A stretch of DNA of 64,000 nt from a virus (lineage: Duplodnaviria; Caudoviricetes): the IMG/VR virus record IMGVR_UViG_3300031994_000009, one strand, 5' to 3'. Below are positions 11,827 through 35,131 of the stretch, piece by piece. The notes beneath the pieces are model-generated. The model was not told the origin of the DNA. It searched no databases and worked only from the letters and a program-made list of their open reading frames with translations. Position 1 is the stretch's first letter. Every line of letters starts with the position of its first letter. The translations under genes were made by a program, and so were the position numbers.

Positions 11827-11851
11827 GTAATTATATACTTGATGACACAAA
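11827..11851 (-). repeat. Conserved 25-bp site, copy 1 (TTTGTGTCATCAAGTATATAATTAC)
   Basis: Close match to the copies at 16544-16569 and 34887-34912. Lies downstream of small orphan ORFs and upstream of the polymerase gene. Confidence 0.8.
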
Positions 11852-12010
11852 TTGTACCTAATTTTTCTGATTTTCAGCGAAATCTGAAGCAACTTTTAAA
11901 ATTATTTCAGCTTCAATTGGTTCATATTCCCATGTTAACTTAGGATATAATTGTTTCTCCCGTTGTAATTGTTATACGGTATATTGAACTCCTCATAATA
12001 TTTCAGCAAG

Positions 12011-12187
12011 TCAACACTTACTAGAATCTTTTTCATATCTTTCCAAGCTTCTGATGTCTATAAAACTTGGCCTTGGTTTTCCTTTTAAATACTCTTTTTC
12101 TATGACATTTGCTGTATCTAGAAGCTTTTGGTATAATTCTTTGTTCTTTTTATCAATATTAGAATTTGGGTCTATATATACATTCAT
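12011..12187 (-). CDS. Small hypothetical protein (58 aa)
   Basis: ATG at 12187 (MNVYIDPNS...) just after the folA stop; AT-rich. Confidence 0.5.
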   Translation of the reverse strand: MNVYIDPNSNIDKKNKELYQKLLDTANVIEKEYLKGKPRPSFIDIRSLERYEKDSSKC

Positions 12188-12200
12188 ATACTTACTTATT

Positions 12201-12707
12201 TTATTTGCGTCTGAAATCCAAAAAATAATACGTGAAATCGACATCTGGATCGTCATCAATTTCCTGCGATCTAACTAATTCCCATTCATCATGATCAAAT
12301 TCTGGAAACACAGTATCGCCATAAAACTCTTTGTCGATATATGTAACGAACATAAAACTTGCAAGATCCATGAATTGTTCATAGACCTTACCTCCGCCTA
12401 TAATAAAGGTTTGATCATCATTCTTTATCATTTCGAAGACTTCCTCGATATGGTGTGCCACCTCAAACCCTTCTGGAGCATCTTTCAGCCTTGAAGAGAG
12501 AATTATATTTCTTCTTCCTTTCAAAGGTTTCTGTTTCGGCAACGACATGTATGTGTTGTATCCCATCACCACAGTATGTCCTATGGTAATTTGCTTGAAA
12601 GACTCCATGTCCTTCTTTATATGCCAAAGAAGTCCACCCTTATCTCCGATCACCCCGTTAGACGACATTGCCACTATTATCGATATTTTATTCAAAATTT
12701 CCCCCAT
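12201..12707 (-). CDS. folA: Dihydrofolate reductase
   Basis: IIVAM..NGVIG..G.L.W, VVMG..T, PLKGRRNIILS, FIIGGG.VY and GDT.FP motifs. Confidence 0.95.
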   Translation of the reverse strand: MGEILNKISIIVAMSSNGVIGDKGGLLWHIKKDMESFKQITIGHTVVMGYNTYMSLPKQKPLKGRRNIILSSRLKDAPEGFEVAHHIEEVFEMIKNDDQTFIIGGGKVYEQFMDLASFMFVTYIDKEFYGDTVFPEFDHDEWELVRSQEIDDDPDVDFTYYFLDFRRK

Positions 12708-13654
12708 TTCTCTCTAAAAACGTCGTAAGCTATCTTTGTTGATTGTTCTTCGAACTTCTGTCTTGCCGACATAACTCTATCTTTCAGAAAATCGATCGCT
12801 GGCCTATATCTCTTGAAATTGTTCTTCGTAAGACGATTCACCACCTTGATGACATTATTTCTTGAATTGTCCGTTTTATCTTCCGATACAATCTTCAAAA
12901 TCGTATTCAAAGATTCAATAGCTTCAGTCAGCTTTGAATATGATTCCGTGGACTTAATTGCTTTAGTTACGCCAGAGGCATCCCCATAAGATCCTTGATA
13001 TGTTTCCAGTTCATGCTTCAGCTGGCCGATATGAGCGTTCCTTTCCGATCGATCCGTAAAGTATATAATCTTGTCAATGCAGTTCTCTATGTCGTTTGGG
13101 GAATTTTGCGCGATAGAACTATATCCTTGGAGGAAAGCGTCTCCAAGTCGTTTCTTCCCTCCACTTGTGACGAACATCTCATAATCGTTATACGCATGCA
13201 TTAGTTCGTGAGATACACTCTTCCCGATGATCCTGATTAGATCAATGTCACTAGGCCCAACAGCCCTGACGAACATGATAGGAACGAATCTAACGGAACC
13301 GTCCACAAATTCAATATGACTTTTTTCGCTGTATTTTCCTGAGCTTTTTGGCTCGATGTCCTCGGATCCATACGTGATATCGATAGTAAGACTAAACCCA
13401 GTAAAGAAAACATCCACACCATCGAATATTGACATATCCTTGTAAGTAAACACCTTTTCGTCCCCATGTCCCATTCCATAGACATCTGGCTTAATAACCT
13501 TATACAATGCCTGAACAATATCGGAAATGTTGTCTTTATATCCGTGCGACTCAAGTATGCTTGAATTGTATCCACTTTGTTCTATCATGAAGTGCCTATA
13601 CAAATGCTCATCAAGCAGACTATCAAATGTTTTCTTATGTTGAATGATTTTCAT
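12692..13654 (-). CDS. Putative zinc metalloprotease (HExxH), paralog A
   Basis: [10 protein letters not shown] plus a downstream ERNA. Clear full-length paralog of 38840..39814. Confidence 0.6.
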
Positions 13655-14478
13655 ACCGAAACCTCCCCCTTAATCACAGGCCAAGGATCATATCCTTCCA
13701 GTACAAAATCCTCATAATCAAATCCGAAAATGTCATTGACATCTGGATTAATCCTCATTTTCGGCAATGGTCTTGGATCCCTATTCAACTGTGTCTTAAC
13801 TTGATCGATCAAATTATTGTAAATATGAACATCACCGAAAGTATGAATGAAGTCTCCATATTCCAGCCCACACACCTGCGCAACCATCATTGTCAGCAAA
13901 GAATACGAAGCGATGTTGAACGGGACACCGAAAAACACGTCAGCACTCCTTTGATAAAGCTGGCATGATAACTTCCCATCTACCACATAAAACTGGAAGA
14001 AGCAATGACATGGAGGCAATGCGGCCTTACCGTTACTCACATTCTTTGCGAAATCCTTTTCCTTCTCGTCAGGCAAAACACTCGGATTCCATGCGGTAAC
14101 GATATGCCTTCTGCTGTTCGGGTTGTTCTTTATTCCATCAATCAATTCAGAAATCTGATCGATCCCCTCGTTGTTCCAATTCCTCCACTGGGCACCGTAC
14201 ACTGGACCGAGATTCCCGTTCGAGTCAGCCCATTCATCCCATATGGTGACACCGTGATCATTTAGATACTTTATGTTAGTGTCCCCTCTCAGCAACCACA
14301 ACAGTTCGTAGATTACAGATTTCATATGAATTTTCTTGGTCGTAACCAATGGGAAACCTTCCTGCAGGTTGAACCTCATCTGGTATCCGAACACGCTGAT
14401 CGTTCCAGTTCCAGTCCTGTCCCCCTTCTGGACACCGTTGTCCAGAATATGCTGCAATAAGTCCAAGTATTGTCTCAT
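13651..14478 (-). CDS. thyA: Thymidylate synthase
   Basis: [30 protein letters not shown] (catalytic Cys), YQRSAD..G.PFN and GD.HIY. Confidence 0.97.
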
Positions 14479-14732
14479 TTCTTGTCTGATTTGATTTTTT
14501 CCAAAATTTCAAAAACCATGATGTCTGGATCAGACTTGATAGCTTCCTTCATGTAAGAAACAATCTGATCGATTGCCAACATATAACAATCAGTTCCTCC
14601 GCGATAAGCCCCATCGAGAAAAGCTTCAGACCCGTTTACATCAACATATCCCTCTGAGGTTTGATCCAAATAAAGTTTTATTTGTTTCTTTACAAGTTCT
14701 TCACATTGATCATTAATATAAAAATTCTTCAT
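14475..14732 (-). CDS. Hypothetical protein
   Basis: 85-aa ORF coupled to thyA by an ATGA overlap. Confidence 0.6.
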
Positions 14733-14745
14733 AACAATTTGATTA

Positions 14746-15639: not shown

Positions 15640-15666
15640 TTAAGAATGATTTCGATTTTTCGATAG

Positions 15667-15680
15667 TGCAAATATACGGA
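15667..15680 (-). promoter_or_regulatory. Bacteroidetes-type host promoter (-7 element TAnnTTTG): TCCGTATATTTGCA
   Basis: Upstream of the dam operon. The same 14-mer recurs at four other - strand operon starts. Confidence 0.75.
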
Positions 15681-15747: not shown

Positions 15748-16509
15748 TCAGATTTCGATAACCAATGGATCATATGTCACATCGTATCGTTCGTTCTTGA
15801 TGCTTACGTTAGCTGTAAGAGTCGTACCATATTTCTCGACATTATGGTTTCCACTATGGACATGGCCACAAAGCCATAATCCGATGATCTTGTCACGAAC
15901 ACATTTCGTCAGGACGGAAGATCCATATTCTGGTTTGTCATATTTCTCCAATGACACTCCAGTATCATTGACAAACTTGCCAGGACTATGTGTAAGCAAT
16001 ACGTCAACCCTATCTGGAATCAGACGGAACAACGCTTCAAGTTCTTCATCGTTCCTATAGAATGCCCAACCATAAAGTTCAGGAATATATGGTGTTCCAT
16101 AAAAAACCTTTCCTTCGATCTCTACTGAATTGTCATGGAGATAAACCATTTTTTCGGAGAATCCAAAAACTTCAGCAACATAATCCGATAATGTAATGTC
16201 CTTATATTTTTCATCGTCTCCGCCGACAGTTCTCCATCGTGGGATGTTAGGATCTATATTCTGTGAATTTGTCCAGTCATTAAAGACATATTCAAAAACG
16301 AAATCATGGTTTCCAGCGATAATGACGATTTTCTTACAATCCAATCCATCACACCATTTCCTGAAAGTTTCTTTCATCCACTTCACGCTTTGCGGAATAT
16401 TTCTTTGCATACGGAGAGGAACGATGTCCCCGCATATACACACGACATCGCAACTTTGCTTAATAACGGGAAGATCCCCGTGCATATCAGATAACGCTAT
16501 GATTTTCAT
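15748..16509 (-). CDS. Metallophosphoesterase (MPPED/239FB-like)
   Basis: SDMHG, CGDI, AGNHD, LLTHSP and CGHVH. Confidence 0.85.
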   Translation of the reverse strand: MKIIALSDMHGDLPVIKQSCDVVCICGDIVPLRMQRNIPQSVKWMKETFRKWCDGLDCKKIVIIAGNHDFVFEYVFNDWTNSQNIDPNIPRWRTVGGDDEKYKDITLSDYVAEVFGFSEKMVYLHDNSVEIEGKVFYGTPYIPELYGWAFYRNDEELEALFRLIPDRVDVLLTHSPGKFVNDTGVSLEKYDKPEYGSSVLTKCVRDKIIGLWLCGHVHSGNHNVEKYGTTLTANVSIKNERYDVTYDPLVIEI

Positions 16510-16543
16510 ATCAACAAAAAATTGTTTCTCCTTGTAAAATTTG

Positions 16544-16837
16544 GGTAATTATATACTTGTTGGCACAAAAATTTACTTCAATGAATTTTTACACATCAAA
16601 TATAAATCATATAAATATTCTTCGCTATATGGTGTTTCTTCAGATATGTGGTACCAACGCCATTCATCAACAAAACCACCAACATAGTGACCTAATTTTT
16701 CTGGTATTTTATCCATTACTGAATAAGGTACATCACTACCCCTTAATAATGCAATAATGTCTTTTTTATCTAAATCAACTTTCATTTTTTACATATTTTT
16801 TATAAACCAATTAGTTACATATTGACTTGTGCCATCA
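16544..16837 (-). mobile_element. Putative single-gene cassette bounded by inverted arms plus the conserved 26-bp site
   Basis: The site at 16544-16569 includes arm TGTTGGCACA (16558-16567). The inverted arm TGTGCCATCA is at 16828-16837. Together they enclose a 70-aa orphan ORF. Confidence 0.5.
16573..16785 (-). CDS. Small hypothetical protein (cassette cargo)
   Basis: 70-aa AT-rich ORF whose stop is 3 bp from the conserved site. Confidence 0.65.
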   Translation of the reverse strand: MKVDLDKKDIIALLRGSDVPYSVMDKIPEKLGHYVGGFVDEWRWYHISEETPYSEEYLYDLYLMCKNSLK

Positions 16838-16860
16838 TATTTTAAAATTAGAATTATTTT

Positions 16861-18033
16861 TTAAGAACAATAAATTTGACGAGACAACAATGGACCTCCC
16901 ATAGCAGTATCATAACAAATGTACTGCTGCTGTGGCCTCTCATACTCAAACCCATTAGTAAGGGCAAAACTGTTATATGAAATAATAGATCCATTGACAA
17001 CAGCATTTGGCGTATTCACGCTTGAATGGAAATGACCGATAAACAACATATCCTGATGAAACACCTTGGAATATTTCAATACAAGACGATTCAGTGCTGG
17101 ATAAATTCCACAGACAGTCCCAGTACCTCCAGACTTGATCTGGAACCCGTGTGCGAAGATAAACGTCTTATTGTCACAAGTGTGGACGATCGCCAACTCG
17201 GACTCTGGGATATAGAATTCCACTGGAAGGTTTGTAATCTCACACTGTTTCTTTATATTCTGGTACATCATCCATTCGTATGACATCTTATACCCGTTAC
17301 TGTGTTGAATCTTCTTCGTTGTTCTTGAGTGGTTTCCGACGATCCCGACGAAACGGATCTTCTTCAATTTCTTCAACGATGGATTTTCACAAAGGTATTT
17401 CAAGCCAGAATATATGAGAGACTGTGCCTTCAACGTAGCTTCAAGAGGGGACAACTGGTTAGTTTGCTCAAGCTCAGAATGTATGTAACCACTGATTGTA
17501 TCACCTAAAGAAGCAAAGATCAATTCATTCACATCATCTTGCACCAAGCAAGCAGCTAAGTTCCTGAAATATGTCTCTATCCTTTGCTCCGCTATCTCTA
17601 TATTATATTCGTTAAGGAAATTCACAGATTCTGGTTTGACAACCTCTTCTATATGGGCATCGCTGAAAAGTGCAACAGCATACCTATGACCCTTCTTTGT
17701 CGAAATAGGCCCAAAGTCATAGATCTGGAACGGTTGAGACTTGACTTCCTTTGTTTTCAGAAATTCCTGATATTCCGCTTCATCTTCTCTAGGCTTTTCA
17801 ACAGTAATAACTTTTACTTCCTTATCTTTTTCTTCATTGATATTCCCAGCATTAGCTCTAGAGAAAAGTTCATAAACTATGTCTTCATGGACAAAATATC
17901 CTTTAGAATTGATCGACTTCCTGATCTTGTCTCTGTTGACACCTATAGCTTTTGACAATTTTCTGATGCTTTCATACACATTTCCGTTACTGTCGATAAT
18001 CTTATTAGGAACGCTTGTAACTACATTAGCCAT
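16861..18033 (-). CDS. N-terminal HTH fused to a calcineurin-like phosphoesterase/nuclease
   Basis: The N-terminus (GNVYESIRKLSKAIGVNRDKIR) is NUMOD1/HTH-like. Catalytic motifs FSDAH, LGD, GNH, AHG and GHFH. Confidence 0.75.
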   Translation of the reverse strand: MANVVTSVPNKIIDSNGNVYESIRKLSKAIGVNRDKIRKSINSKGYFVHEDIVYELFSRANAGNINEEKDKEVKVITVEKPREDEAEYQEFLKTKEVKSQPFQIYDFGPISTKKGHRYAVALFSDAHIEEVVKPESVNFLNEYNIEIAEQRIETYFRNLAACLVQDDVNELIFASLGDTISGYIHSELEQTNQLSPLEATLKAQSLIYSGLKYLCENPSLKKLKKIRFVGIVGNHSRTTKKIQHSNGYKMSYEWMMYQNIKKQCEITNLPVEFYIPESELAIVHTCDNKTFIFAHGFQIKSGGTGTVCGIYPALNRLVLKYSKVFHQDMLFIGHFHSSVNTPNAVVNGSIISYNSFALTNGFEYERPQQQYICYDTAMGGPLLSRQIYCS

Positions 18034-18444
18034 TTATTCTTCACTTTCTTTTTTCTTTTTTCCATAAACCTGAGCATAGACATCCAATTCTTTTTTCCTA
18101 TTCTCATGAAGTTCGAAATCATAGTTTGTCTTCAACCCATACATTAGGTTAAACCATTCGAACTCCCTTTCTACCGTGCTTCTTTTCCAATTAGTCTTTG
18201 GTGCATAATCTTTCCAATGCTCGAAAAAATAAACCTTCCACGAAAGAAACTCATCGAAATCATCGAAGCAATATCTCTGAAACCAATCGTTTCTGTATTC
18301 GATATTTGGATCGATCTTGGATTTATCGTCTGGCCATTCAGGTAATGTCATCAAATAGTCATAATCAATCCCGAACTTCTTCAGTTCAGAATTAATGACA
18401 TCTTTCGCAAACTGTTTTGCTGTGATTTTCTTTGTATAAGCCAT
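18034..18444 (-). CDS. Hypothetical protein
   Basis: 136-aa ORF in the operon. Confidence 0.65.
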   Translation of the reverse strand: MAYTKKITAKQFAKDVINSELKKFGIDYDYLMTLPEWPDDKSKIDPNIEYRNDWFQRYCFDDFDEFLSWKVYFFEHWKDYAPKTNWKRSTVEREFEWFNLMYGLKTNYDFELHENRKKELDVYAQVYGKKKKESEE

Positions 18445-18461
18445 TTATAAAATGGTTTGTT

Positions 18462-18713
18462 TTAGCTATCTCCGTAAACTTCATTGTAGTTATATTGCTC
18501 ATATCTGGAAGCTATTTCGTGTAAACGGTGAGCAAAATCATTGTTATCCGTATATATTCCACGCGATCTTGCATATTCATCGATCACATCATCCAATGTC
18601 TTTTTCTTGTATACGTTATTATCCATGAAATCCTTTACAGGATGAGATTTTGAGATTTCAGAGATTCCGTATCCTAAAGCGCAAAGCGCAACATCTTTTA
18701 ATAAGCTTCCCAT
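18462..18713 (-). CDS. Hypothetical protein
   Basis: 83-aa ORF directly downstream of a host-type promoter. Confidence 0.6.
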   Translation of the reverse strand: MGSLLKDVALCALGYGISEISKSHPVKDFMDNNVYKKKTLDDVIDEYARSRGIYTDNNDFAHRLHEIASRYEQYNYNEVYGDS

Positions 18714-18733
18714 GATTTTATTTTTATAAACGA

Positions 18734-18747
18734 TGCAAATTTACGGA
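18734..18747 (-). promoter_or_regulatory. Bacteroidetes-type host promoter TCCGTAAATTTGCA
   Basis: TAnnTTTG core, 20 bp upstream of ATG 18713. Confidence 0.7.
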
Positions 18748-18782
18748 TTTTTGAACAAACAAAAAAGAAATTGTTTAGAAAA

Positions 18783-18995
18783 TTACGATTTATTTTCATT
18801 TTCTCTTGGTTTCTTAAACCAAATAAACCCAGAAACAACGATCAAACAAAATAGCCAGAGAATAGATGCGATTGCTCCAACAACATATCCTAACAATTTC
18901 TTCTCTGTTTCGGATCTCTTTATAACAACGATAAAAGTTACAAGCAAAACAATCGTGACTATCAGATATAATATCAAAACTCCAACAAAACTCAT
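18783..18995 (-). CDS. Small membrane protein (2 predicted TM helices)
   Basis: Two hydrophobic segments separated by KRSETEKK, with a basic C-terminus. Confidence 0.55.
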   Translation of the reverse strand: MSFVGVLILYLIVTIVLLVTFIVVIKRSETEKKLLGYVVGAIASILWLFCLIVVSGFIWFKKPRENENKS

Positions 18996-19053
18996 GTTAG
19001 AAACATTTCTTTTCTTAATTATATAGAAAAAACACGAAACCCATTAAAAATAG

Positions 19054-19061
19054 GATAAATA
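19054..19061 (+). promoter_or_regulatory. T4-type late promoter GATAAATA
   Basis: 22 bp upstream of ATG 19084, at the start of the baseplate operon. Confidence 0.7.
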
Positions 19062-19083
19062 ACCTAAAGTTTTTACAAGCTCA

Positions 19084-19335
19084 ATGTTCAATCCAAATAA
19101 ACACAGCGGAAGATGGTATTGCACAAGACACCAAGACCATTATACGGATCTAGGTTTCGACTATCATGGACACATATATGAAAAGACATTGAGCCATGTC
19201 ATATTCCAAAATAAAAGGAACAAAGCTATACTTTCTAGAATAGAGCCTATGATTGAATATGCGATCAACGCGGTTAAACAGATTAAACTTCAATTCATAT
19301 TCTCTCTCGACAAAAACGACACAAGAATCAACTGA
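19084..19335 (+). CDS. Small virion-operon protein
   Basis: 83 aa, TGATG-coupled to the baseplate gene. Confidence 0.65.
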   Translation: MFNPNKHSGRWYCTRHQDHYTDLGFDYHGHIYEKTLSHVIFQNKRNKAILSRIEPMIEYAINAVKQIKLQFIFSLDKNDTRIN

Positions 19336-22300
19336 TGGGCACATTCAATTACAGTCGTTTCAGATATTTCGACAAAAATGGACATGAACTTGTAATAAAG
19401 CATGTACCACAAGTTAAACTGTCGATCCAAAACGATAACATACCTGAGTTCGGAGCGGAATACGCATTCGTAAACGGAGATCCATCCCTGCAGAACATTG
19501 CACAAAATTCATCTATTGTGCAATTAAAAGCTGGAGATAGATTCAATCTTGCGGACAATTCATCCCCGCTAAACGTCAAAATCTCCATAACAAAGGACGG
19601 AAGCACAAACGAATCGGAAGGTTTGATATCAAATTCTTCTACACACACTTTATATACACTAAAATCATATAGCAGCAGCAACGGAGAAGAAAACATACCG
19701 TTAATTCACTATAATGAAGGTTCATTGTCTTTGAAATCCTTTATGATAGGGCAAAGTAATCTTGACATAAGCAACTCTGCGAATTTCTTTCCAACATACA
19801 CGTTTAATTCAAGGATATCTTTCGACAGAATCTCAACTGGTTTAGTAGAGACACAGACAATCTATGTTCTGGTTGAGAATGAAAACGACATAGACGAAAA
19901 CGGTGTACCAAAACTGACGACTGTCCAAGAATATGCGGAAACCAACCAAGACGCTTCGGCATATATCAATAGGTTCCAACTGTTCTTCTTCATAGATTGC
20001 AGAAACCAGAAAGATTTCAGGATGTTCCACGTCAAATACGATGAGATGGAATGGTCCGACAGATCGATACTTGATTTCAGAAAAGAATACGAAGACGGGA
20101 GCAACGACAACGGATATTCCGTGAATATCGGATTCAGCGGAGAGAATGACGGTGTGTATGAGCAGAATCTTTACGTGTGCATCCTTGACAAATCCACAGA
20201 AAGCGAAGATTATCCAGGAGACGTATACCCAGTTGGGGAAATTCTTATGACAGCAGAAACAGAAGGGGAGGACGAAAGATACAGGGCATTCTTCACAAAT
20301 TTCGGAATTCCAGACCCGAATGAATACGACAAGATCTTCAACGAAACGAACATGAACGAAGATCTCCCCGACTTCAACAGCATCAACAAGCATTCCAAAA
20401 AGATGTTCCTCGCGTATGACAAAATATTCCCATATATAGGAAGCTACAAAGCCTTGATTAACGCCGTAAAGGTTCTTGGATACGAAGACGAAATATTCTT
20501 TAAAGAATGGTACAAGGAGATCGGAAACTCCGCCATGGAAGACAGCGGATACACAACATATGAGATAACATACGGTTCCAAACTTCACACCAACATAATA
20601 CAAAACGCTGTATTATCGGAAAGAATTCACCTTAGAAAGATGAACTGGCTTAGTATGTTATACAGGATGAGCATAGAGCTAGACGAATTCGAGGACCTGT
20701 ATGGATTCCCGCATGCGATAACAAACTACAGGAACTTCAACACGGACAAACTCATGAAGCTGTTTGGATTGAAAGAATGGCTTGAGAAATACGTGATAGG
20801 GGTGAACTGCCATATTATAGACATAGGGGGGGAAGGGCTTGTTTTTGAAAGATACAATCTACAGAAATTTGGATCCTATCAGAACGTAATAGACGTTACA
20901 AGGGAAAAAACAATAAGTCCCATCATTAAAAACTCCGTTGAAATCATGCACGACGGATCGGCAAACATTAATGTAGAGCTTCATTCGAACGGAGAAACGA
21001 CAACGATAGAAGACTGCGCAGATATAAAATTTTCTGATTTTTGTGAAGGATATTTTAATGAAAGTGGAGTTTTTTGCCAGTTCGACGAATACGTTGAAGA
21101 TAACAACACATACCGATATTACGGAAAAACATTTGAGATGAACGAAAATATAGAGTCAATTATAATAAGAACAAAAGGAACACATGACTCTTATATGTAC
21201 AACGCGGACTCATCCAACGCTGACATATATCAAAACTTTTCTTCAATTCTTATAGATAATAATGAAATTTTCTTCGACGAAACGCATGACTTCGAAAAGG
21301 CATTAAACTCCCCGTTTAAGAGATTACCATTCATTGAAATAGAAAACGGAATAATCAAAAGATACAAAAACGATAGGGACAATACTGGAGAACTCCAATA
21401 CTACGCAAACATATATCCAGACAGTTCTAATAATTTATTATATTATAGAATTGATGTATTAAAAGATGCAGAATCTTCAACAAAATCATACTGGCTCGAT
21501 GAAATTCCAACATTCCTGCCACCAATATCTGTATTATCAGATAATAACATAACGATCACACCACCGTCAAAAAGACTAGGAACAGATCTAACCGCACAAG
21601 ATATGGTTAGACCGTTAAGCAAACCATATAGCATTTCTGTAGAAAACGGAACATCAGTAGAATACCAAAGACAAGATTGGTACACTAACTACGGTTTAAG
21701 ATTTTGTGTAGATAATGCGCACGGAATACCTTGTTTCAAAATTATAGGGTACGAGGAAAAAAATATTATGTTAAGCGGAAACAAAAGAACACATGTTCCT
21801 AGAATAAGACAAAGGATCACAGAGCCAAAACAATACGAATATTTTCTTGAAATAACAAATGGAAGACTAATATTTCCAGACGTAAGAAAAGATTTTATAT
21901 CTATTATTAATTTTGAATACAATCCAGAAACACAAAAAAGAAAAATATATGTCACAACATATAAAGACACAATTCATTCATCAACATATAAGTATATAAG
22001 TGGAAAATCCAGCAAAACTATTATTGATAATTTTATATTTGGGTGCGAGTATATAGGATTCATTAACAACTATGACGCAAACCCTCAACAGGCAATCACA
22101 TTTAATAACACCAAACAAATTAAAGTATTTCATGCTGGAGATTATGAGGTCAGTAATATAATATACAACAAAGATAACTTCGTTTTTTCAAAAAAGGCAG
22201 AAGGTATATGTAAAGTAAAAACACCATCTGCTGATCTTATTATATTGACAGCAGATCAGAGTTCAAATAATGCATACGAAATATACGACTCCATCGCTCC

Positions 22301-23915: not shown

Positions 23916-23927
23916 AATAAGCATAAA

Positions 23928-24257
23928 ATGGAAAAAATATACAGTAACAATGGATATGCAAGAATGAAGACCCTTACTATATCAAGAGGAGAAGATTCTA
24001 GTATATATTCATTCGTGTCACAATTCGTATATAACAGTACGACATACCCTTCATTGACGGACGAACAATTACAAAAAATGGATCGCACAAGTTATATAGA
24101 CAGACTCAGATCATTTGTAAATTACATATATAGTATAAACGAAGGATTGCAATCAGACTGTCCATACATGGCTCAAGGCGCAGAAATCTATAATACAGAT
24201 TGGTGCCCAATAACTGGGCCATCTTCAGAATATAATTGGGATAACATACAAAGTTAA
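23928..24257 (+). CDS. Hypothetical structural-operon protein
   Basis: 109 aa, co-oriented in the late operon. Confidence 0.65.
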   Translation: MEKIYSNNGYARMKTLTISRGEDSSIYSFVSQFVYNSTTYPSLTDEQLQKMDRTSYIDRLRSFVNYIYSINEGLQSDCPYMAQGAEIYNTDWCPITGPSSEYNWDNIQS

Positions 24258-24279
24258 TCAAAAATCAACAAATAAAAAT

Positions 24280-25182: not shown

Positions 25183-25184
25183 TA

Positions 25185-25934
25185 ATGCCTAATCAAGTAC
25201 ATTTTAAAGTAGGATTAAGAGTAAACTATGAAGATCTGGAAGGTAGCGAACCAGATCAAAATACTTTATATTTTGTAAACTCAAATGGGCAATTTGACCC
25301 ACATGGGATGGGAGACGATGGTGATTTGTATCTAGGAGGATATTTGATTGGTGTCAGTAGAGCAGAAAAAACGCAAATAGACTCAAGTATATCACAAATT
25401 GAACAAATATTATCTCAATTACAAACAGTAGATTCAAGTTCATGGTATATAGGAGATGATTCAAGTGCAATGAATGGATGGCAAAAAACTACGCGGCCAT
25501 TATCAAAAGACTATTGCTATGATGTTTCCCTTGGCGATTTCATATACTCTGACAAACTTGAGATAAGCGTTTCCCTAACATTAGAGAATTGGTCAAATAT
25601 TGGATATCTCGCTCAAATATATGCAGAGATTGGTTTTTATGAACACGCAGAAGGAGATGATCGTCTATCTTGGAGAATTGCTTATTTAACTGGAAATCCC
25701 TTTTCAACACAAACAGTAATGAGTTATGTTGCATCAAAAGACACACAATATTGGTCAAATAACGTTCATTTTTCTGGAATAATATATGGTCCTTTCTATA
25801 CATCTGAAAACAATTATATGCTTAGACTACACATAATAGTTCCAAACGAAAGATACATAGTTGCAAGATCAACAACAGCAGATTCAATAAACGCTAGTCA
25901 ATTAATAATAAGAGGATACCGTTCATTGATATGA
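25185..25934 (+). CDS. Tail fibre-associated protein
   Basis: The N-terminus (VHFKVG...DQNTLYFV...GDLYLG) resembles that of the preceding gene. ATG at 25185. Confidence 0.55.
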   Translation: MPNQVHFKVGLRVNYEDLEGSEPDQNTLYFVNSNGQFDPHGMGDDGDLYLGGYLIGVSRAEKTQIDSSISQIEQILSQLQTVDSSSWYIGDDSSAMNGWQKTTRPLSKDYCYDVSLGDFIYSDKLEISVSLTLENWSNIGYLAQIYAEIGFYEHAEGDDRLSWRIAYLTGNPFSTQTVMSYVASKDTQYWSNNVHFSGIIYGPFYTSENNYMLRLHIIVPNERYIVARSTTADSINASQLIIRGYRSLI

Positions 25935-25939
25935 AAAAC

Positions 25940-25972
25940 AAAAACCGAGATCAACTTTGACCTCGGTTTTTT
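25940..25972. terminator. Bidirectional intrinsic terminator
   Basis: AAAAACCGAG...CTCGGTTTTT between convergent genes. Confidence 0.8.
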
Positions 25973-25983
25973 GCTTTTATAGT

Positions 25984-26646
25984 TTAACCAATTGATGCGT
26001 CTAATGATGGAATATCAATAGGATCTTTTTCTGCCCCATTCATGATATAAGCATAATATCCTTGAGACATCATAGCCCATCTATCTTTCAAATCTTCAAT
26101 TTTCTGCGTTTCCGCTTTATATTCATCGACAAGTTCATGCAACCTTTCATATACAGGAAGATATTCATCCCAGATTTCTGCCATATGTTTTGCGGATTCA
26201 TACCCGAATCCAGCATAATTCTCAAAAAGAATAAAAGCATATTGAACTGGAGAATACTCAAGCGAAAGTTCTTTTGGATTATTTTCATCAAAATTCTTAA
26301 TAAACTCGTTCAATAAATCTGAGAAATTCAGTACACCCACGAACATTCTCTGTGTCCAGAAAGAATTGTCGTTGAATTCTTTCATGAATTTTGCGACTCT
26401 CAATGCATTGTCCTTATCTGCAATCACATAATCCTTTCTTTCTTTCAAAGCATTTGCTGCAGCTTCAAAATCAGCCTTTGCCTGATTGATGTCGTCTTCT
26501 GTAGGGGTCTTATCTGGATCGATCCAGAACTTGCCCATGTTGTTCACGTTAAACTCGGAAATAACTTTACGGCGTTCAGCCTCTTTCTGTGCAGCAATTT
26601 GCACATCATCAAGTTCATTTTTTTCTTTTGCGGTTTTCTTTGCCAT
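25984..26646 (-). CDS. Hypothetical protein
   Basis: 220-aa helical ORF. Confidence 0.7.
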   Translation of the reverse strand: MAKKTAKEKNELDDVQIAAQKEAERRKVISEFNVNNMGKFWIDPDKTPTEDDINQAKADFEAAANALKERKDYVIADKDNALRVAKFMKEFNDNSFWTQRMFVGVLNFSDLLNEFIKNFDENNPKELSLEYSPVQYAFILFENYAGFGYESAKHMAEIWDEYLPVYERLHELVDEYKAETQKIEDLKDRWAMMSQGYYAYIMNGAEKDPIDIPSLDASIG

Positions 26647-26652
26647 TTCTAT

Positions 26653-26913
26653 CTATGGTTTCTTTTCTATTTTTCTCCATTTAGGATAATCACATTCACA
26701 TGAAAAATAATAATCTATCTTTGGATCATAGCCTTCTGGAATTCCCTTCACATCAGTAACTATTTTTCCAGTGTATACAAGAGTTCCGTATCCTGTCAAC
26801 TTATGATAAGGAAACTTGTCATACTTTATATATACATTTCTATATTTTTTTACAAATAATGACACAGTGCCCAAACTCCTATTCCTATAGTCCCCAACAT
26901 CCCCAACATCCAT
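26653..26913 (-). CDS. Small hypothetical protein, start uncertain (possibly frameshifted)
   Basis: The open frame fills the gap between two genes. The best-placed ATG (26837) is 2 nt out of frame across a (TA)4 run. Confidence 0.35.
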   Translation of the reverse strand: MDVGDVGDYRNRSLGTVSLFVKKYRNVYIKYDKFPYHKLTGYGTLVYTGKIVTDVKGIPEGYDPKIDYYFSCECDYPKWRKIEKKP

Positions 26914-27302
26914 AACAATGCTTTTGTAAGCGTCATTCTGTATCCAGTATATATGAATAAAATCCCATATGATAATGTTGGGTTCCCTTCCTCATCGACA
27001 AAATTATTCACTTGCGGAACAAGATACTCACTCCACCCTAGATCCTGTCCGAGATATTGTACGGCTGGTTTCAGCTTAATCATCACCATTCGGTCAAAAT
27101 CATATCCAGCGTTCATTAAATCCGCATCAGTACAGTTGATTTGCATATATAGTATGTTTCCAAGCCAGTTCTTTTTTATCCCTAGATTGTTCATACCAGA
27201 TTTCGGTTCAGCAAGCTCCCTCTTAATGTCTTTTCTGAACCTGAAGAAATTCTTTATGTCAAAGAATGATTGCACTATTTTTTTATCACTAAAATCAGTC
27301 AT
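26850..27302 (-). CDS. Hypothetical protein with a C-terminal membrane anchor
   Basis: C-terminal ALLWMLGMLGTIGIGVWALC. Confidence 0.65.
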   Translation of the reverse strand: MTDFSDKKIVQSFFDIKNFFRFRKDIKRELAEPKSGMNNLGIKKNWLGNILYMQINCTDADLMNAGYDFDRMVMIKLKPAVQYLGQDLGWSEYLVPQVNNFVDEEGNPTLSYGILFIYTGYRMTLTKALLWMLGMLGTIGIGVWALCHYL

Positions 27303-27309
27303 TTAATAA

Positions 27310-28071
27310 TCAGTCATTAAATATTTCACAGTATATATCATATAAATCAGGATATCTGAGTTTCACCTCATCAGACAAGCACCTCTTTCCTTTAAGGAGC
27401 CAATTTTGGACGGAAAAAAGAGTCATATTGTTATCCTCTGCGATTTGTCTGGCGTTCTTTTTGTTTACATACCTTTCCTTCATTACTATCCTGAGATGAT
27501 CGGGGAGATACTCGATACATTCCACAGATGCATCATATATTTCAGATTTTATCTCACTTTTTGTTATCGAAACAATACATTTTCCATCAAAATACATATT
27601 ATCTGACATAAACTCATAAGGATCAGAATTAGAAATGTTTGTGCTTTCTTCTTCGTCAGGAACATCGCGATACATATCAGATAAATCCACTGGAACAATA
27701 TTCAACTTATTGTTGACACCCTTGTTCTTTAAATACTGGATTGTTGTATTGTACGCGATTGTATATAGCCATGTAGAAAATTTAGCGGTATCTGGATTAT
27801 ATGTATTTATATTGAACCATACCCTTTCCAACGTGACGCTAATCACACTATCAGTGTCATATCCATTACCAGTCATGCTTCCTATAAACGATTTTAAGCC
27901 CCAATCACATCGTTTCACAAGAGCATTGAAACTCTTTTCGGTGTGATCGATCATGAACCTTTCCGCAAGCTTTTGAATATCCTTAGCATCCTTCTTGTTT
28001 TGCCTTTTCTCTATAGAATCACAACATTCCGTTTGAAAAGGAACATCAAAGATATCAATTTTATCAGGCAT
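27310..28071 (-). CDS. RNA polymerase sigma factor (sigma70/ECF-like)
   Basis: Region 2 (AKFSTWLYTIAYN) and a region 4 HTH (LPDHLRIVM...ARQIAED...VQNWLLKGK). Confidence 0.8.
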   Translation of the reverse strand: MPDKIDIFDVPFQTECCDSIEKRQNKKDAKDIQKLAERFMIDHTEKSFNALVKRCDWGLKSFIGSMTGNGYDTDSVISVTLERVWFNINTYNPDTAKFSTWLYTIAYNTTIQYLKNKGVNNKLNIVPVDLSDMYRDVPDEEESTNISNSDPYEFMSDNMYFDGKCIVSITKSEIKSEIYDASVECIEYLPDHLRIVMKERYVNKKNARQIAEDNNMTLFSVQNWLLKGKRCLSDEVKLRYPDLYDIYCEIFND

Positions 28072-28435
28072 TATTTATTTCATCGGTTTTCTTCGTTTTA
28101 TCGACAACATTTTCTTCTTGTTTAGAAATCGGAATCGGTTCGAAATATTTCAAAAAGTTATCCTTTTTCTCAATAACAGACATTAACTTCGAAACAATCT
28201 TATATGGCAAACCAGACAAATCTTTTATAAACTCATCAAGCTTAGCAACTGGCATGATCCTTCCACACTCTTCGATCCTGTCAATGAATTGTTTTGTATC
28301 TGCATACGCCATATCTCCAAGAATTGTCTTCAAATCCCTGACAAACATATCGGTTATTCTATATGTTTGGTAATATTGAACAACCTGCGGTTCTGGCATA
28401 TCATTTGAATTAGATAATTCTTTCTCAGTATTCAT
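28064..28435 (-). CDS. Hypothetical protein
   Basis: 123-aa ORF in the operon. Confidence 0.65.
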   Translation of the reverse strand: MNTEKELSNSNDMPEPQVVQYYQTYRITDMFVRDLKTILGDMAYADTKQFIDRIEECGRIMPVAKLDEFIKDLSGLPYKIVSKLMSVIEKKDNFLKYFEPIPISKQEENVVDKTKKTDEINNA

Positions 28436-28454
28436 TTTTATAATATTTTGATTT

Positions 28455-30278
28455 TCAATTTTTTACTATAGATAAAGCTGGAATTATTTGTAATCGTTTC
28501 ATAAAATCTTGATTAAACATATTTGGTGCAGTGTGCATCAATATGGTATAGCATCCATCGAATATGAATGTTACACACCAATCATGATCATTCCTTACAC
28601 CTCGTCCAACTCCTTGCAATATAGATATTGCAGTAGTATTGCTATACCATATGGGTCTTAGCTTTTGTTTTGCTGCAACAAACTTATCTCCAAGACTTGG
28701 ATAAGGAACTTTCATTATAATCTGGAACCTGCAAAGATCATCATCAAAAGAAAGACCCTCGATCAAACTAGGTCCGACAAGAATCTTATCATTACAGTAT
28801 TTAAAATATTGAATAGCTTCACCTTTCTCTTTGGTGTCGTCATATAATATCAAACGTTTCCTTGTACTTGCGGAAACATTTTCAAGAAGAGACTTTGCGA
28901 AAGCATAACTCCCAGTCTGTATTATACCCCTCTTCCCAGAATACATAGACACAGTTGCGTCGATCAACTCACATACCTTTGGAAGATTATAAGCCTTCAT
29001 ATTATACGACAACTTATAATCTGGAACATAATATATAGGAGAATTTGTGAAATCAAAAGTTGAAGGTATGTCGATGTAATCAAATCCATCAAATCCCATA
29101 TCAACCGAAAATTGATAAGGATCCCCAATCGTAGCCGACATATACATCTTTCTTTTTGAATGTACATGAAACTTCTCACCCATCAGATAAGATTCATCAA
29201 TACAATTGAATACGATATTCTCCATATTCTTGTCATCCCAATTTTTGACAATGTTGATGGATCCTATCTTTGTGATTATGTCAACATATTCAGAAAAAGA
29301 AGATATATGGTTAGATATAAAATCGCAATCTCTGGCAAGGCCCTTGTCCTCTTTGGAGAGTATTTCCTTGTTGTCGTTCTTGCTAGAAATCTCCCTCATA
29401 ATAGTATCTATCCCATCAGAAACAACTTTCATTGTTTTGACATATTCCTCTAGCAAATCCAATATTTCAATATTATCTTCCGTTTTCGCAATCTGATACC
29501 TGATGTTTTGGATTTTGTTTGTGATTTCTGGATCATCACATCCAGCCACGACAATTCTCCCTATCTTGGCAAGATCATCTTTATTGAAAGAAGGGGAAAA
29601 ATGTTTCTGGACTATTTCAACTATCTTATGGGCTTCATCACAAATAACAAAATCCCTACTTGTAAACGGAGCCATTCCATGCAACATCTTTTTGACAATA
29701 TTCTGCTGTATCAACCAAAAAGAATATGTACAAACAAGAACATCGGACTCCATCGCCTTCTCCCTATCCAATATATACTGGCAGGTCTGTGAACACTCTG
29801 GAAACTTTTGCTTGATGTCTCCATAAGACTTACACCCCTTCAACTTGCATTGACCAGACGAAAAACTCAATCCATTTATGCTACATGTATATGCTTGTTG
29901 GCCTTTGATGACAGCCCAATTCGGAAAATATTTCTCAATATCTCTTGCATACTGATCGATTAAGTTTAGATCTGATGCAAGAATATACCCTTTCATGTCG
30001 TAATACTTGGAAAGCACCATGGCTATTGTCATAGCCGTGATGCTCTTTCCAGAACCAGTAGGTGCTGATATAATGACATTTTCTCTTCCGTTGAGCCAAT
30101 CGTCGATCGTCCTTGCTACAGCTTCCTTTTGGTTTGGCCTGAATTGGAATAATGGTCCAAAACACTTTTTGGAAACAGCATCAATCTGATCCATGATTTT
30201 CTCAAATCCTGGAGAAACCGTTTTCTTTTCTTCGGGTTCTTCAATAGAAGATGTTATATTTTCATCAAACTCTGCCAT
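28455..30278 (-). CDS. DinG/XPD-family SF2 helicase
   Basis: FRPNQ Q-motif, APTGSGKS, a Cys cluster (putative Fe-S), DEAH, MSAT, KVPYP and QGVGRGVR..D. Confidence 0.88.
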   Translation of the reverse strand: MAEFDENITSSIEEPEEKKTVSPGFEKIMDQIDAVSKKCFGPLFQFRPNQKEAVARTIDDWLNGRENVIISAPTGSGKSITAMTIAMVLSKYYDMKGYILASDLNLIDQYARDIEKYFPNWAVIKGQQAYTCSINGLSFSSGQCKLKGCKSYGDIKQKFPECSQTCQYILDREKAMESDVLVCTYSFWLIQQNIVKKMLHGMAPFTSRDFVICDEAHKIVEIVQKHFSPSFNKDDLAKIGRIVVAGCDDPEITNKIQNIRYQIAKTEDNIEILDLLEEYVKTMKVVSDGIDTIMREISSKNDNKEILSKEDKGLARDCDFISNHISSFSEYVDIITKIGSINIVKNWDDKNMENIVFNCIDESYLMGEKFHVHSKRKMYMSATIGDPYQFSVDMGFDGFDYIDIPSTFDFTNSPIYYVPDYKLSYNMKAYNLPKVCELIDATVSMYSGKRGIIQTGSYAFAKSLLENVSASTRKRLILYDDTKEKGEAIQYFKYCNDKILVGPSLIEGLSFDDDLCRFQIIMKVPYPSLGDKFVAAKQKLRPIWYSNTTAISILQGVGRGVRNDHDWCVTFIFDGCYTILMHTAPNMFNQDFMKRLQIIPALSIVKN

Positions 30279-30280
30279 GG

Positions 30281-30294
30281 TGCAAATATACGGA
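30281..30294 (-). promoter_or_regulatory. Bacteroidetes-type host promoter TCCGTATATTTGCA, likely leaderless
   Basis: TATATTTG is followed by only CACC before the helicase ATG. Confidence 0.75.
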
Positions 30295-30314
30295 TTAAAA
30301 ACGAAAACAGGAAA

Positions 30315-32384
<2,070 letters not shown>

Positions 32385-32389
32385 CTATA

Positions 32390-32851
32390 TTATTTTTCTA
32401 AAAATTTCTTAAATCTCTCCACGTTAGGTTTATCAAGATCGATCGTGTTCTCTTCTATATCACTTTTGGTATAATAATCATCAGACTCGCATGCATTGTA
32501 ATAACAGTAATCAACGAATCTTAGCAGATTTGGATTAGGAAGATCAACCTCGAAAACATCTTTCCAAATGACAGAAAACCTTTCAGCCCAATAATTCTCC
32601 TCATCTTTTGTCAAAGATCTACTTGTTCCAAAATCTCCACTATCTTCTCCATATGTATAAAATAGAACATAACTTAAATAGTAGTTTATGCGTTCACCAT
32701 CATCAAGCACTTCTATTTCAAACCCTATATTATTAGTATCATGAAAAGAAGATATTTCTATAAATTTACTGTCTAATTTTTCATCAATTATATCATATCT
32801 TTGATCCCAAATAGGATACATCACAGACTTTTTATGTGCGTAATCACTCAT
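32390..32851 (-). CDS. Hypothetical protein
   Basis: ATG at 32851 (MSDYAHKK); YCYYNAC motif. Confidence 0.6.
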   Translation of the reverse strand: MSDYAHKKSVMYPIWDQRYDIIDEKLDSKFIEISSFHDTNNIGFEIEVLDDGERINYYLSYVLFYTYGEDSGDFGTSRSLTKDEENYWAERFSVIWKDVFEVDLPNPNLLRFVDYCYYNACESDDYYTKSDIEENTIDLDKPNVERFKKFLEK

Positions 32852-32855
32852 AATT

Positions 32856-33881
32856 TTAATATGGTTTTGGTGCAAATTTCACAAATTCAGATCTCAATGC
32901 ATTAAGCCTTGGCTGATACATTTTCTTATATTCTTCCCACTCATGAGATGGAACAACATCATCAACGTAGAGTTCTCGCCAATAGTTATTCGCGGCAGAA
33001 TAATTCTTGATTTCGCCATAAGTAACGATCTGTTTTGCAAACTCATACAAACGGAAACAATGAAACAATGATTTGATTGCCCTATACCAATCATAATCTG
33101 CCTTCACTGTAAGTTTCTTGTGGCATTTTGCCCAACTATTGTTCACGATAGCAGATACGTTCTGGCGCAATTTCCATCGATCGAGTTCGATGTGTTTCTG
33201 GTATCCGCGCATAAACCCGACATAAAACTCTTCTGGAAGATATAACGCCTCATATGCAACAATGTTGTTGTCAATTATCATCTTTATAAAATCACTTCTT
33301 CTAACATAAAACACATGAACAGGAAGATTCTTGTACATTTCATCCAAGTTCAACAATAGCTTATCAATCATCTTGCTATCCCCTTTTTTGTAATCGTCTA
33401 GTCTTTCATACATACAATCTCCACCATACATCTTAGGTAAGGAAATATAATCATCCACGACAGCAACCACATCGACATCTGATCTATCCGTTGGTTCAAT
33501 TTCATACACAACCGATCCTCGGAAAAACGCAAAATCTATATGGGAATCGATCTCATCTTGTTCGCTTGGGAAAGGAGGATCAATCACAATGTCTAATCTT
33601 TCTTCCAATTTGCTGTGAACAAGTTTCGTGAATTTTTTCGCATAGTCCGAACATATATCCAACGCAGGATAATATTCATCCTCGTTATACATATTTTCAC
33701 AATCGATTCCGATATATTTTGCAACAACACCAACGAATAAATCATTGGTATCTTCATAGATCGAATCAAAAGACACTTGTTTCTCAAGCCATTCGCCAGT
33801 TATTGTTTCATCAACATACTTATCATACGCTTTATCAAGAGCACATCTTATATCTTCTAAATTGTATTTTTGATTTTCCAT
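32856..33881 (-). CDS. Pol-beta superfamily nucleotidyltransferase
   Basis: GS.VY...SDVDVVAVV (GS + DxD) and C-terminal KSLFHCFRL. Start placed at ATG 33881, after the promoter. Confidence 0.7.
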   Translation of the reverse strand: MENQKYNLEDIRCALDKAYDKYVDETITGEWLEKQVSFDSIYEDTNDLFVGVVAKYIGIDCENMYNEDEYYPALDICSDYAKKFTKLVHSKLEERLDIVIDPPFPSEQDEIDSHIDFAFFRGSVVYEIEPTDRSDVDVVAVVDDYISLPKMYGGDCMYERLDDYKKGDSKMIDKLLLNLDEMYKNLPVHVFYVRRSDFIKMIIDNNIVAYEALYLPEEFYVGFMRGYQKHIELDRWKLRQNVSAIVNNSWAKCHKKLTVKADYDWYRAIKSLFHCFRLYEFAKQIVTYGEIKNYSAANNYWRELYVDDVVPSHEWEEYKKMYQPRLNALRSEFVKFAPKPY

Positions 33882-33896
33882 CAATAAAACATTTGA

Positions 33897-33910
33897 TGCA
33901 AATATACAGA
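33897..33910 (-). promoter_or_regulatory. Bacteroidetes-type host promoter TCTGTATATTTGCA
   Basis: TAnnTTTG core upstream of the NTase-ligase operon. Confidence 0.7.
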
Positions 33911-33915
33911 TTTTT

Positions 33916-33923
33916 AATAAATA
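33916..33923 (+). promoter_or_regulatory. T4-type late promoter AATAAATA
   Basis: 21 bp upstream of ATG 33945, back-to-back with the host-type promoter. Confidence 0.6.
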
Positions 33924-33944
33924 CAGAAACAAATTTTTTAAATA

Positions 33945-34178
33945 ATGGGAAAATCATCAGATCAGAACATGAAGCTCGTCGACGTAAATTGTGGAAGGAT
34001 GGTCCCCATGGGAAACCTTAATCCTAACGTCGCTGGGAGTTACGCATATATGAGGAATGAACTTGACCAGAAACAACATTCAAGCAAGAGTTTCCATGCT
34101 GGAACGAGCTACGGATTTACACCAGGATACACAACAAAAGGATTAAATAACGTGCAATGGGGAGTGGCAACGTTTTAA
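33945..34178 (+). CDS. Small late hypothetical protein
   Basis: 77 aa, follows a late promoter. Confidence 0.55.
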   Translation: MGKSSDQNMKLVDVNCGRMVPMGNLNPNVAGSYAYMRNELDQKQHSSKSFHAGTSYGFTPGYTTKGLNNVQWGVATF

Positions 34179-34858
34179 AGAAAATATCCAAAGAAGACAA
34201 AGAATCGATTAAATATCTTCTTGAGAATTACACTGCAGAAGAACTTCTGTCGGAAAGCAAAATAGGAAGGAAAATCCTACCTTACCTTGGCGCTGGTTTG
34301 ATGGCTATGTCGTCTTGCTCGATCGATCCAAAAATCAACGCTGAAAAAGAACCGACGGAAATCGTATCTGACACTTTGACCAATAACACCAACAAATTGA
34401 TCGATAACAGAATAGAAGCCGCAACCGAATACATAGACGCAAATCTGAAAAGAAACGGGAAAAGCATAGACGATGTGCCATTTGATATAGCCGATCTTGT
34501 GATCGCTTGCTATGAAAATGACTTCGATCTCCCTCTTGCCATGGCGCAACTCCAGAACGAATCCCATTTCGGGACAGATGGAGATCGACAGAGAAAAACA
34601 AAAAGCCTGTTTTCTTTAGGGCTATACGACAACGGGACAAACAAGAAATACTACAACACGTACAGGGAGTCGATCGAAGATTACATAGACAAGATGAAGG
34701 AACACTATTTGCAAAACGGGAAAGTTTCCGTCAACAAACTATTAATGAACTTCGTTGATGATCAAGGCCACAGATATGCACAAGATCCTAACTATGAAAG
34801 ATCTATAATTTCAACAAGAAACAAAATAATCAAAACATATCCAATTTTAGCAAATTAA
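34157..34858 (+). CDS. GH73-type glucosaminidase (peptidoglycan hydrolase)
   Basis: LAMAQLQNESHFG (catalytic Glu), S.F.LG.YD, ESIEDY and the YAQDPNY motif. Confidence 0.8.
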   Translation: MGSGNVLKKISKEDKESIKYLLENYTAEELLSESKIGRKILPYLGAGLMAMSSCSIDPKINAEKEPTEIVSDTLTNNTNKLIDNRIEAATEYIDANLKRNGKSIDDVPFDIADLVIACYENDFDLPLAMAQLQNESHFGTDGDRQRKTKSLFSLGLYDNGTNKKYYNTYRESIEDYIDKMKEHYLQNGKVSVNKLLMNFVDDQGHRYAQDPNYERSIISTRNKIIKTYPILAN

Positions 34859-34885
34859 AAGAGCGGCCATCTGGTCGCTCTTTTT
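34857..34885. terminator. Bidirectional intrinsic terminator
   Basis: AAAAGAGCGGCCA-TC-TGGTCGCTCTTTT between convergent units. Confidence 0.8.
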
Positions 34886-34886
34886 A

Positions 34887-35131
34887 GGTAATTATATACT
34901 TGTTTGCACAAATATAGTTGTAATTATTTAATTTTCGGCAAAAACTAACTTTCTAATTGAATTTCTGATTTAATATATGTGTGATAGTCTATATATTCTG
35001 TTATCACTTTGTTTTTTAATATGGTTGTTCTGTATATTGGTTTCTCAAAGTCGTAAACCATGCGGATATTTTCAAAATCAAATGTCATTTTAATATTACT
35101 TTTATTGTATTGATTCTTTTCTGTGCCATCA
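34887..35131 (-). mobile_element. Putative single-gene cassette bounded by inverted arms plus the conserved 26-bp site
   Basis: The site at 34887-34912 is 25/26 identical to 16544-16569. The inverted arm TGTGCCATCA at 35122-35131 is identical to 16828-16837. They enclose a 47-aa ORF between the portal stop and its terminator. Confidence 0.5.
34945..35088 (-). CDS. Small hypothetical protein (47 aa; cassette cargo), not in the ORF track
   Basis: MTFDFENIRMVYDFEKPIYRTTILKNKVITEYIDYHTYIKSEIQLES*, read directly from the sequence. Confidence 0.45.
   Translation of the reverse strand: MTFDFENIRMVYDFEKPIYRTTILKNKVITEYIDYHTYIKSEIQLES

Follow-up and report, generated by a model that had tools for sequence, protein, structure and literature searches.

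A tailed phage from a sheep gut metagenome (IMG/VR virus record IMGVR_UViG_3300031994_000009) carries three copies of a ~24-nt intergenic motif, which we interpret, with a probability of about 0.88, as marking three derivatives of an insertion sequence (IS) of the IS1595 family that have no transposase of their own: one miniature inverted-repeat transposable element (MITE) without any open reading frame (ORF), and two mobile insertion cassettes (MICs). The copies lie in a 64,000-nt stretch of the ~181-kb phage genome, referred to below as the window. The units span 131-349 bp and hold either no ORF or one small ORF each. The terminal inverted repeats (TIRs) of these units are those of an autonomous IS1595 copy, in a family of elements flanked by 8-bp target duplications; the second and third insertions are polymorphic among related phages, and the same cargo genes are bounded by TIRs in other phage contexts. 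The class of element is already known, and those of the window are an ordinary kind of it.

Motif copies in the window

Scanning the window with a 25-nt degenerate form of the motif yields three matches and no more, at 11827-11851, 16545-16569 and 34888-34912 of the minus strand; 100 dinucleotide-preserving shuffles gave none, the chance expectation being 0. The three minus-strand copies pointed out by a previous, sequence-only reading of this DNA were thus recovered. That reading had also placed an inverted partner arm, the exact 10-mer TGTGCCATCA, upstream of small orphan ORFs at copies 2 and 3, and we find it there, its two plus-strand occurrences being at 16828-16837 and 35122-35131. Each arm sits a few nucleotides past the stop codon of the upstream minus-strand gene, which encodes an SbcD-like exonuclease in the first case (stop at 16861-16863) and a T4-type portal protein in the second (stop at 35137-35139). 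The arm at 35122 is longer than 10 nt, with 13 nt matching the TIR interior. Between arm and motif lie, on the minus strand, an ORF of 70 aa at copy 2 (16573-16785, hereafter ORF70) and one of 47 aa at copy 3 (34945-35088, hereafter ORF47). Copy 3 does stand, as described before, between the portal stop and a bidirectional terminator (~34862-34886). The claim that an orphan ORF directly precedes every copy holds for copies 2 and 3; at copy 1 a probable inverted TIR is found instead, ~80 nt upstream.

IS1595-type ends in Bacteroidales genomes

The ~24-bp motif is composed of an inner box, TGTGCCATCA, and an outer part, GTATATAATTnCC, its outer end being on the ...TATAATTnCC side. A search of species-representative genomes with a 21-nt core gave 78 exact matches, 77 of them in metagenome-assembled genomes (MAGs) of Bacteroidales from rumen or gut and one in a MAG of Chitinophagales. 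The Bacteroidales MAGs contain 12-55 copies each, and a control search with the reversed pattern returned 0. Copies in the MAGs are accompanied, at a distance of 96-810 bp, by a complete reverse-complement partner. A perfect 8-bp target duplication flanks 15 of 33 TIR pairs, and at least 7 of the 8 positions agree at 24 of the 33; with shuffled pairing, the corresponding figures are 5% and 17%. Target duplications that are not homopolymers include TAAATATG, ATAATTAA and AAATCATT. One copy, at positions 409-3209 of locus L051, is 2801 bp long, is bounded by these 24-nt TIRs and a perfect duplication of TAAATATG, and encodes a 311-aa transposase of the IS1595 family (PF12762, 3e-45; NF033547, 1e-61) with a Zn-ribbon (PF12760). 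The TIR pairs, the 8-bp duplications and this transposase-encoding copy therefore identify the motif as the TIR of an IS1595-family element; judged by its sequence, the repeated ~24-nt site is an IS1595-type TIR and neither a promoter nor a recombinase site.

The sequence-only reading had proposed that the sites are core sites of a tyrosine recombinase, as in dif, Xer or integron systems, at which promoterless mini-genes would be inserted and excised. Units 2 and 3 do have inverted 10-bp arms at either end, and the two ends, joined on paper, yield a palindrome-like 10-6-10 site. However, each unit end has a single arm, never two arms around a spacer. The supposed 6-bp spacer, together with the TATAAT stretch, is the outer part of the same 24-bp TIR of which the 10-bp arm is the inner part, and it belongs to the TIR at both ends of intact copies. 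These intact copies carry 8-bp duplications, which are not made by a conservative site-specific recombinase, the associated enzyme is a DDE transposase, and the boundaries of the insertions lie away from the arms. We consider a mechanism of this type extremely improbable. What does stand of the single-gene cassette idea is that these are small mobile units, each with one unrelated orphan gene and no transposase, which are missing from relatives at the same loci.

Perfect matches to the TIR core come almost only from uncultured Bacteroidales MAGs of yak, sheep, goat, buffalo and horse gut, and on the basis of this distribution that Bacteroidales lineage probably hosts both the window phage and the phage of a second contig carrying the motif (G001, see below). 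The host genomes also contain MITEs with these TIRs (positions 5990-6555 of L052 and many of the loci L043-L120), in which the cargo is 300-500 nt of conserved, GC-rich DNA without ORFs; this cargo falls into at least three sequence families and has the look of structured RNA. Neither this cargo nor the GC-rich stretch conserved ahead of the MAG copies of the motif has a match in Rfam at the gathering threshold. Readings of the latter stretch as an IS200/IS605 element, an omega-RNA, a group II intron or a non-coding RNA promoter were superseded by the TIR and target duplication result.

Presence and absence of the insertions in related phages

Three independent metagenomes of other ruminant or gut samples (X3, X4 and X5) contain contigs ~90-95% identical to the window, and these were compared with it as sister strains. 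Parts of the interval 15800-35799 are uncovered in the three (e.g. ~23.8-25.8 kb), and no conclusion was drawn from these holes; joints with a low 'side' were ignored as probable repeats or other organisms. In the X3 and X4 contigs, position 16508 is joined to 16858, so that 349 bp of the window are skipped (insertion 2, 16509-16857, minus strand), and position 34885 is joined to 35137, so that 251 bp are left out and 2 nt are replaced (insertion 3, 34886-35136, minus strand). The X5 contig joins 34881 to 35134. At the empty site 2, the exonuclease stop is followed by 2 nt and the ATG of a phosphoesterase gene; at the empty site 3, the portal stop directly abuts the terminator. Two more distant phages, G002 and G003, have an empty, tight exonuclease/phosphoesterase junction, and in G002 the terminator comes directly after the portal stop, i.e. 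the portal site is empty too. The empty state is therefore ancestral.

The comparison of orthologous loci, suggested already by the sequence-only reading, thus uncovered empty sites at both the exonuclease/phosphoesterase and the portal locus. It did not confirm that the units end at the 10-bp arms: insertion 2 reaches 20 nt beyond the arm on one side and 48 nt past the box on the other, and insertion 3 begins 5 nt outside the arm and ends immediately after the motif.

Cargo genes in other phages

ORF70, to which no family could be assigned, has 29 homologues with 45-94% identity. Most of them, including the closest (90-94%), are found without TIRs in tight operons, those of various phage contigs. 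In three samples (L126-128), a copy with 76% identity is enclosed in a complete 293-bp cassette with the layout 24-nt TIR, 25 nt, ORF, 7 nt, 24-nt TIR, and the flanks of this cassette are A-runs adjoining a terminator. The homologues of ORF47, also without an assigned family, are 78-91% identical and occur in operons of L133 and L134; in the ORF47 cassette of L135 the left TIR is complete, the right TIR has an internal deletion, and the 8-nt flanks are nearly identical. The similarity between the window and L135 is restricted to the cassette, with 88.8% nucleotide identity over 224 bp, and the same is true of L126, with 78.6% over 248 bp. The only DNA shared with L135 and L126 is that of the cassette, a pattern typical of a MIC. 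Searches of PHROGs, Pfam and the ESM Atlas gave no family for ORF70 or ORF47. Both cargo ORFs are co-oriented with the surrounding operon, as they are in L126 and L135, and from this orientation they are predicted to be expressed, most likely, by operon read-through.

Condition of the three elements

Element 1 appears, from its sequence, to be an ORF-less MITE of ~131 bp (11826-11956). Its right TIR (motif copy 1; 11826-11849, minus strand) has 2 mismatches to the 24-nt TIR consensus and lies 18 nt upstream of the ATG of the gene for the C-terminal part of the DNA polymerase (polB). The probable left TIR, inverted with respect to it (11931-11956, plus strand), shows 18 of 24 matches with one gap and resembles a TIR variant with the inner box TGTGTTAACT seen in phage G001.

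The right TIR of element 2 (motif copy 2; 16544-16567, minus strand) has 1 mismatch to the consensus and shares 23 of 24 positions with its counterpart in the complete L126 cassette of ORF70. The left TIR (16828-16857, plus strand) is decayed: its inner 10 nt are exact and its outer part has diverged, with 7 mismatches over 24 nt, and its outer end is the boundary of the indel.

In element 3, the outer end of the right TIR (motif copy 3; 34887-34910, minus strand) falls within 1 nt of the insertion end. Sequence comparison places a degenerate second TIR-like copy in tandem just inside it (34919-34942, minus strand), and in L135 the DNA between the two tandem copies is deleted. The left TIR (35122-35134, plus strand) is truncated to its inner 13 nt and abuts the portal stop; L135 retains a full 24-nt left TIR at the homologous position. 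The bidirectional intrinsic terminator (34862-34886) belongs to the flank outside the element, and its A-run is the insertion target of element 3. Terminator A/T runs neighbour the insertions in L126 and G001 as well. The right TIRs of the window have 1-2 mismatches per 24 nt to the consensus.

Several observations weigh against our interpretation. All three window copies depart from a textbook insertion. The left TIRs of elements 3 (13 nt) and 2 are truncated and decayed, respectively, and that of element 1 is of moderate significance, with a local p of about 0.03-0.05. Element 3 is flanked by a 6-bp repeat only, TAAAAA, and elements 1 and 2 have no flanking target repeat. Insertion 2 extends 35 nt past the outer end of its right TIR and is for this reason not a simple in-place transposition without later change. 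A tblastn search of the window (64 kb of the genome) with the IS1595 transposase found none, in agreement with the previous description of the units as having no transposase of their own. Finally, the data are assembled contigs, in which transposition is not directly observed.

Some of these features would also be expected if the element family is as described here and the window copies, or at least insertion 2, arrived already decayed, by homologous or illegitimate recombination with another phage. The 35 extra nt of insertion 2 contain the 12-mer GGAGAAACAATT, which recurs at the left end of element 1, and this, together with the missing target duplications of elements 1 and 2 and the position of the closest ORF70 homologues in TIR-less operons, speaks for such a history. 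(Over 14 nt, the end of insertion 2 may resemble the 3' end of the exonuclease gene, but with 10/14 matches too weakly to be used.) On the other hand, insertion 2 on its left side and insertion 3 on its right side are bounded, within 1 nt, by outer TIR ends, the TAAAAA flanking element 3 is present as a single copy in the sister strains, and the insertion sites, after a stop codon and in a terminator A-run, are of the same kind as those of the intact cassettes of L126 and G001. Arrival in an already decayed state seems to us rather unlikely, and we favour transposition of IS1595 derivatives into these sites. A pair of intact TIRs, which current mobility requires, is lacking in elements 2 and 3. 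The window copies belong to the IS1595 family by descent and are probably immobile now, given that their left TIRs are truncated or decayed.

Motif copies in phage G001 and the promoter alternative

The contig G001 (loci L035-L042) is a 147-kb phage contig of IMG/VR that is unrelated to the window, with only 3 weak protein matches to it. It contains 13 copies of the motif, on both strands, 6 of which face terminators or the 3' ends of convergent genes. An inverted motif-ORF(s)-motif arrangement is found three times, and TIR-ORF-TIR units of 1.1 and 1.3 kb have A-run duplications. Two TIR-bounded units hold a single gene (277 and 291 aa; TIR loci are, for example, 60705-61825, 122318-123601 and 91-1670), and the ORFs inside the TIR units were ruled out as transposases. 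The transposase of G001 is 90% identical to that of L051. Its gene is a full IS1595 transposase gene at the contig end, and there is a second transposase fragment at 67505-67720; as the contig starts inside the IS, an assembly break or a chimera is possible.

The orientation of these copies bears on another reading, in which the motif serves as a promoter, of phage or host type, that moves along with genes in the manner of the promoter early stem-loop elements (PeSLs) of T4-type phages, and the insertions result from recombination between promoter copies. The motif contains TATAAT, copies 1 and 2 lie 18 and 35 nt upstream of start codons and are co-oriented with them, G002 has a real promoter at the equivalent spot upstream of polB, and degraded half-PeSLs have been described near indels (PMC4122927). 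However, there is no -35 element at 17-bp spacing, and the copies have no hexamer in common 17 bp ahead of the TATAAT. Promoters of the phage and its relatives are of a different type, TAnnTTTG, and a Bacteroidetes-type promoter of this kind, ccGTATATTTGCA, is found upstream of 5 window genes. Almost half of the G001 copies point into terminators or convergent 3' ends, and the bacterial copies are inverted pairs with 8-bp duplications and non-coding cargo. Moreover, PeSLs flank genes as direct repeats with an upstream stem-loop, whereas the partners in the window are inverted and the sole hairpin, at copy 3, lies downstream. The promoter alternative, which the sequence-only reading had also offered, is not supported by these results and we regard it as very unlikely; a first reading of ours, of the motif as a phage-specific promoter, was dropped after the G001 orientations and the TIR pairs of the host genomes had been seen. 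A TIR of the IS1595 type may have weak outward promoter activity.

Genomic context of the phage

The T4-type portal protein encoded in the window (PF07230) is 42% identical to the portals of Prevotella Lak megaphages. The window also encodes the C-terminal part of a family B DNA polymerase, ThyA, DHFR, a Dam methylase, a metallophosphoesterase and the SbcD-like exonuclease. A megablast search of the window against 50,697 phage records revealed no close relative, and the closest relatives in IMG/VR are G002 (portal identity 81%), G003 and G004. At the portal loci of 16 IMG/VR relatives, no copy of the motif is found. Two of the three pattern matches in IMG/VR (L017 and L019) lie inside coding sequence and are apparently due to chance.

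The strongly conserved ccGTATATTTGCA promoters precede the minus-strand starts at 15639, 18713, 30278, 33881 and 60971, with a T-rich stretch ~15-20 nt further upstream; the gene starting at 60971 is nearly leaderless, its promoter being 4 nt before the ATG. In G002, a TAtcTTTG box is located 19 nt ahead of the polB start.

The polB gene of the window (10036-11811, minus strand) encodes only the C-terminal part of the polymerase, 591 aa, and residues 179-294 give a sub-threshold match to Intein_splicing. The polymerase of G002 has the same arrangement (601 aa), and given this shared truncation, phages of this group seem to have a split or intein-scarred polymerase. From the Dam methylase to polB, the window (11860-14745) contains an 85-aa ORF, ThyA, a 320-aa ORF without known function and DHFR; the counterpart in G002 (positions 7100-9080 of L033) has, besides two unknown ORFs and a ThyX-like gene, a terminator and a TAtcTTTG promoter. 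Here the thymidylate-synthesis route has been replaced as a block, and element 1 is at the downstream edge of the interval.

Discussion

Passenger-carrying forms, called 'transporter IS', are known in the IS1595 family (Siguier, Gagnevin & Chandler 2009, as cited in PMC3129680 and PMC7986276). The elements described here have in common with IS1595 insertion sequences the TIRs, which are those of a copy whose DDE_Tnp_IS1595 transposase has a Zn-ribbon, and passengers unrelated to transposition. The 8-bp target duplication in AT-rich DNA is common to the wider family with these TIRs, including the cassettes of L126 and G001. They differ in that the window copies have no transposase, measure ~130-350 bp and have damaged left TIRs. 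MITEs and MICs are defined in PMC3129680, with MIC231 of Bacillus cereus as an example of the latter. As in both of these, IS ends enclose cargo other than a transposase, mobility would depend on a cognate transposase supplied in trans, and the elements are multi-copy in host genomes. Two features set the window elements apart from MITEs and MICs: the cargo is a single phage gene of 47 or 70 aa, and the carrier is a large lytic-type phage and not a bacterial chromosome or plasmid.

The PeSLs of T4-type phages are sigma70-type promoters with an upstream stem-loop that serve as direct repeats for homologous recombination (PMC2839356, PMC4122927). Like the window motif, they are short conserved intergenic sequences that edge strain-specific indels of orphan genes and have degraded half-copies nearby, but they have no TIR, target duplication or transposase.

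The mobile elements MPME1 and MPME2 of mycobacteriophages, a description of which is attributed to Sampson and colleagues in 2009, are reportedly ~440 bp long, with short inverted repeats and one small ORF; we know of no enzyme to which their transposition has been assigned. They resemble the window elements in being ultra-small, bounded by inverted repeats and polymorphic among related phages, and in having one small ORF. There is no sequence relation between the two, however, and the ends of the window elements tie them to IS1595.

The following course of events would account for our observations. An IS1595-family element has spread through uncultured Bacteroidales of rumen and gut, mostly as transposase-less derivatives. 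The window phage, a relative of the Prevotella Lak megaphages with a T4-type portal, carries what appears to be a MITE of ~131 bp upstream of polB and two cassettes of ~250-350 bp, each with one tiny phage gene (70 or 47 aa) in the sense orientation of the operon. The cassettes could have been moved in trans by a DDE transposase coming from an IS of the host or from a co-infecting phage, such as G001, which carries one, and would land in AT-rich intergenic sites such as terminator A-runs. Transposition would have brought them in, with recombination as a possible route for insertion 2, and the cargo would be expressed via operon read-through. Later, the window copies would have lost the outer part of their left TIRs, and they may now be fixed relics.

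A wider proposal is conceivable, although we put it forward only tentatively: rumen phages and their Bacteroidales hosts might share a pool of ultra-small IS1595-ended cassettes of ~250-300 bp, each with one tiny phage gene captured out of an ordinary operon, which a transposase, borne by host or phage, actively shuttles between unrelated phages. If true, these cassettes would be among the smallest gene-carrying transposable elements, and they would provide a dedicated route for the exchange of orphan genes among phages, possibly including anti-defence genes.

The interest of the elements lies in their tiny size, their natural presence/absence polymorphism, the signs that genes were captured from phage operons and the link of an uncultured large phage to a host. 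Shared transposon ends tie an uncultured Lak-like phage to a specific lineage of uncultured rumen Bacteroidales, a connection that is testable. For the annotation of promoters in phage metagenomes, it matters that what looks like a TATAAT promoter in intergenic DNA can be the end of a transposon. On our reading, some orphan mini-genes enter the conserved operons of huge phages riding between the ends of a host IS.

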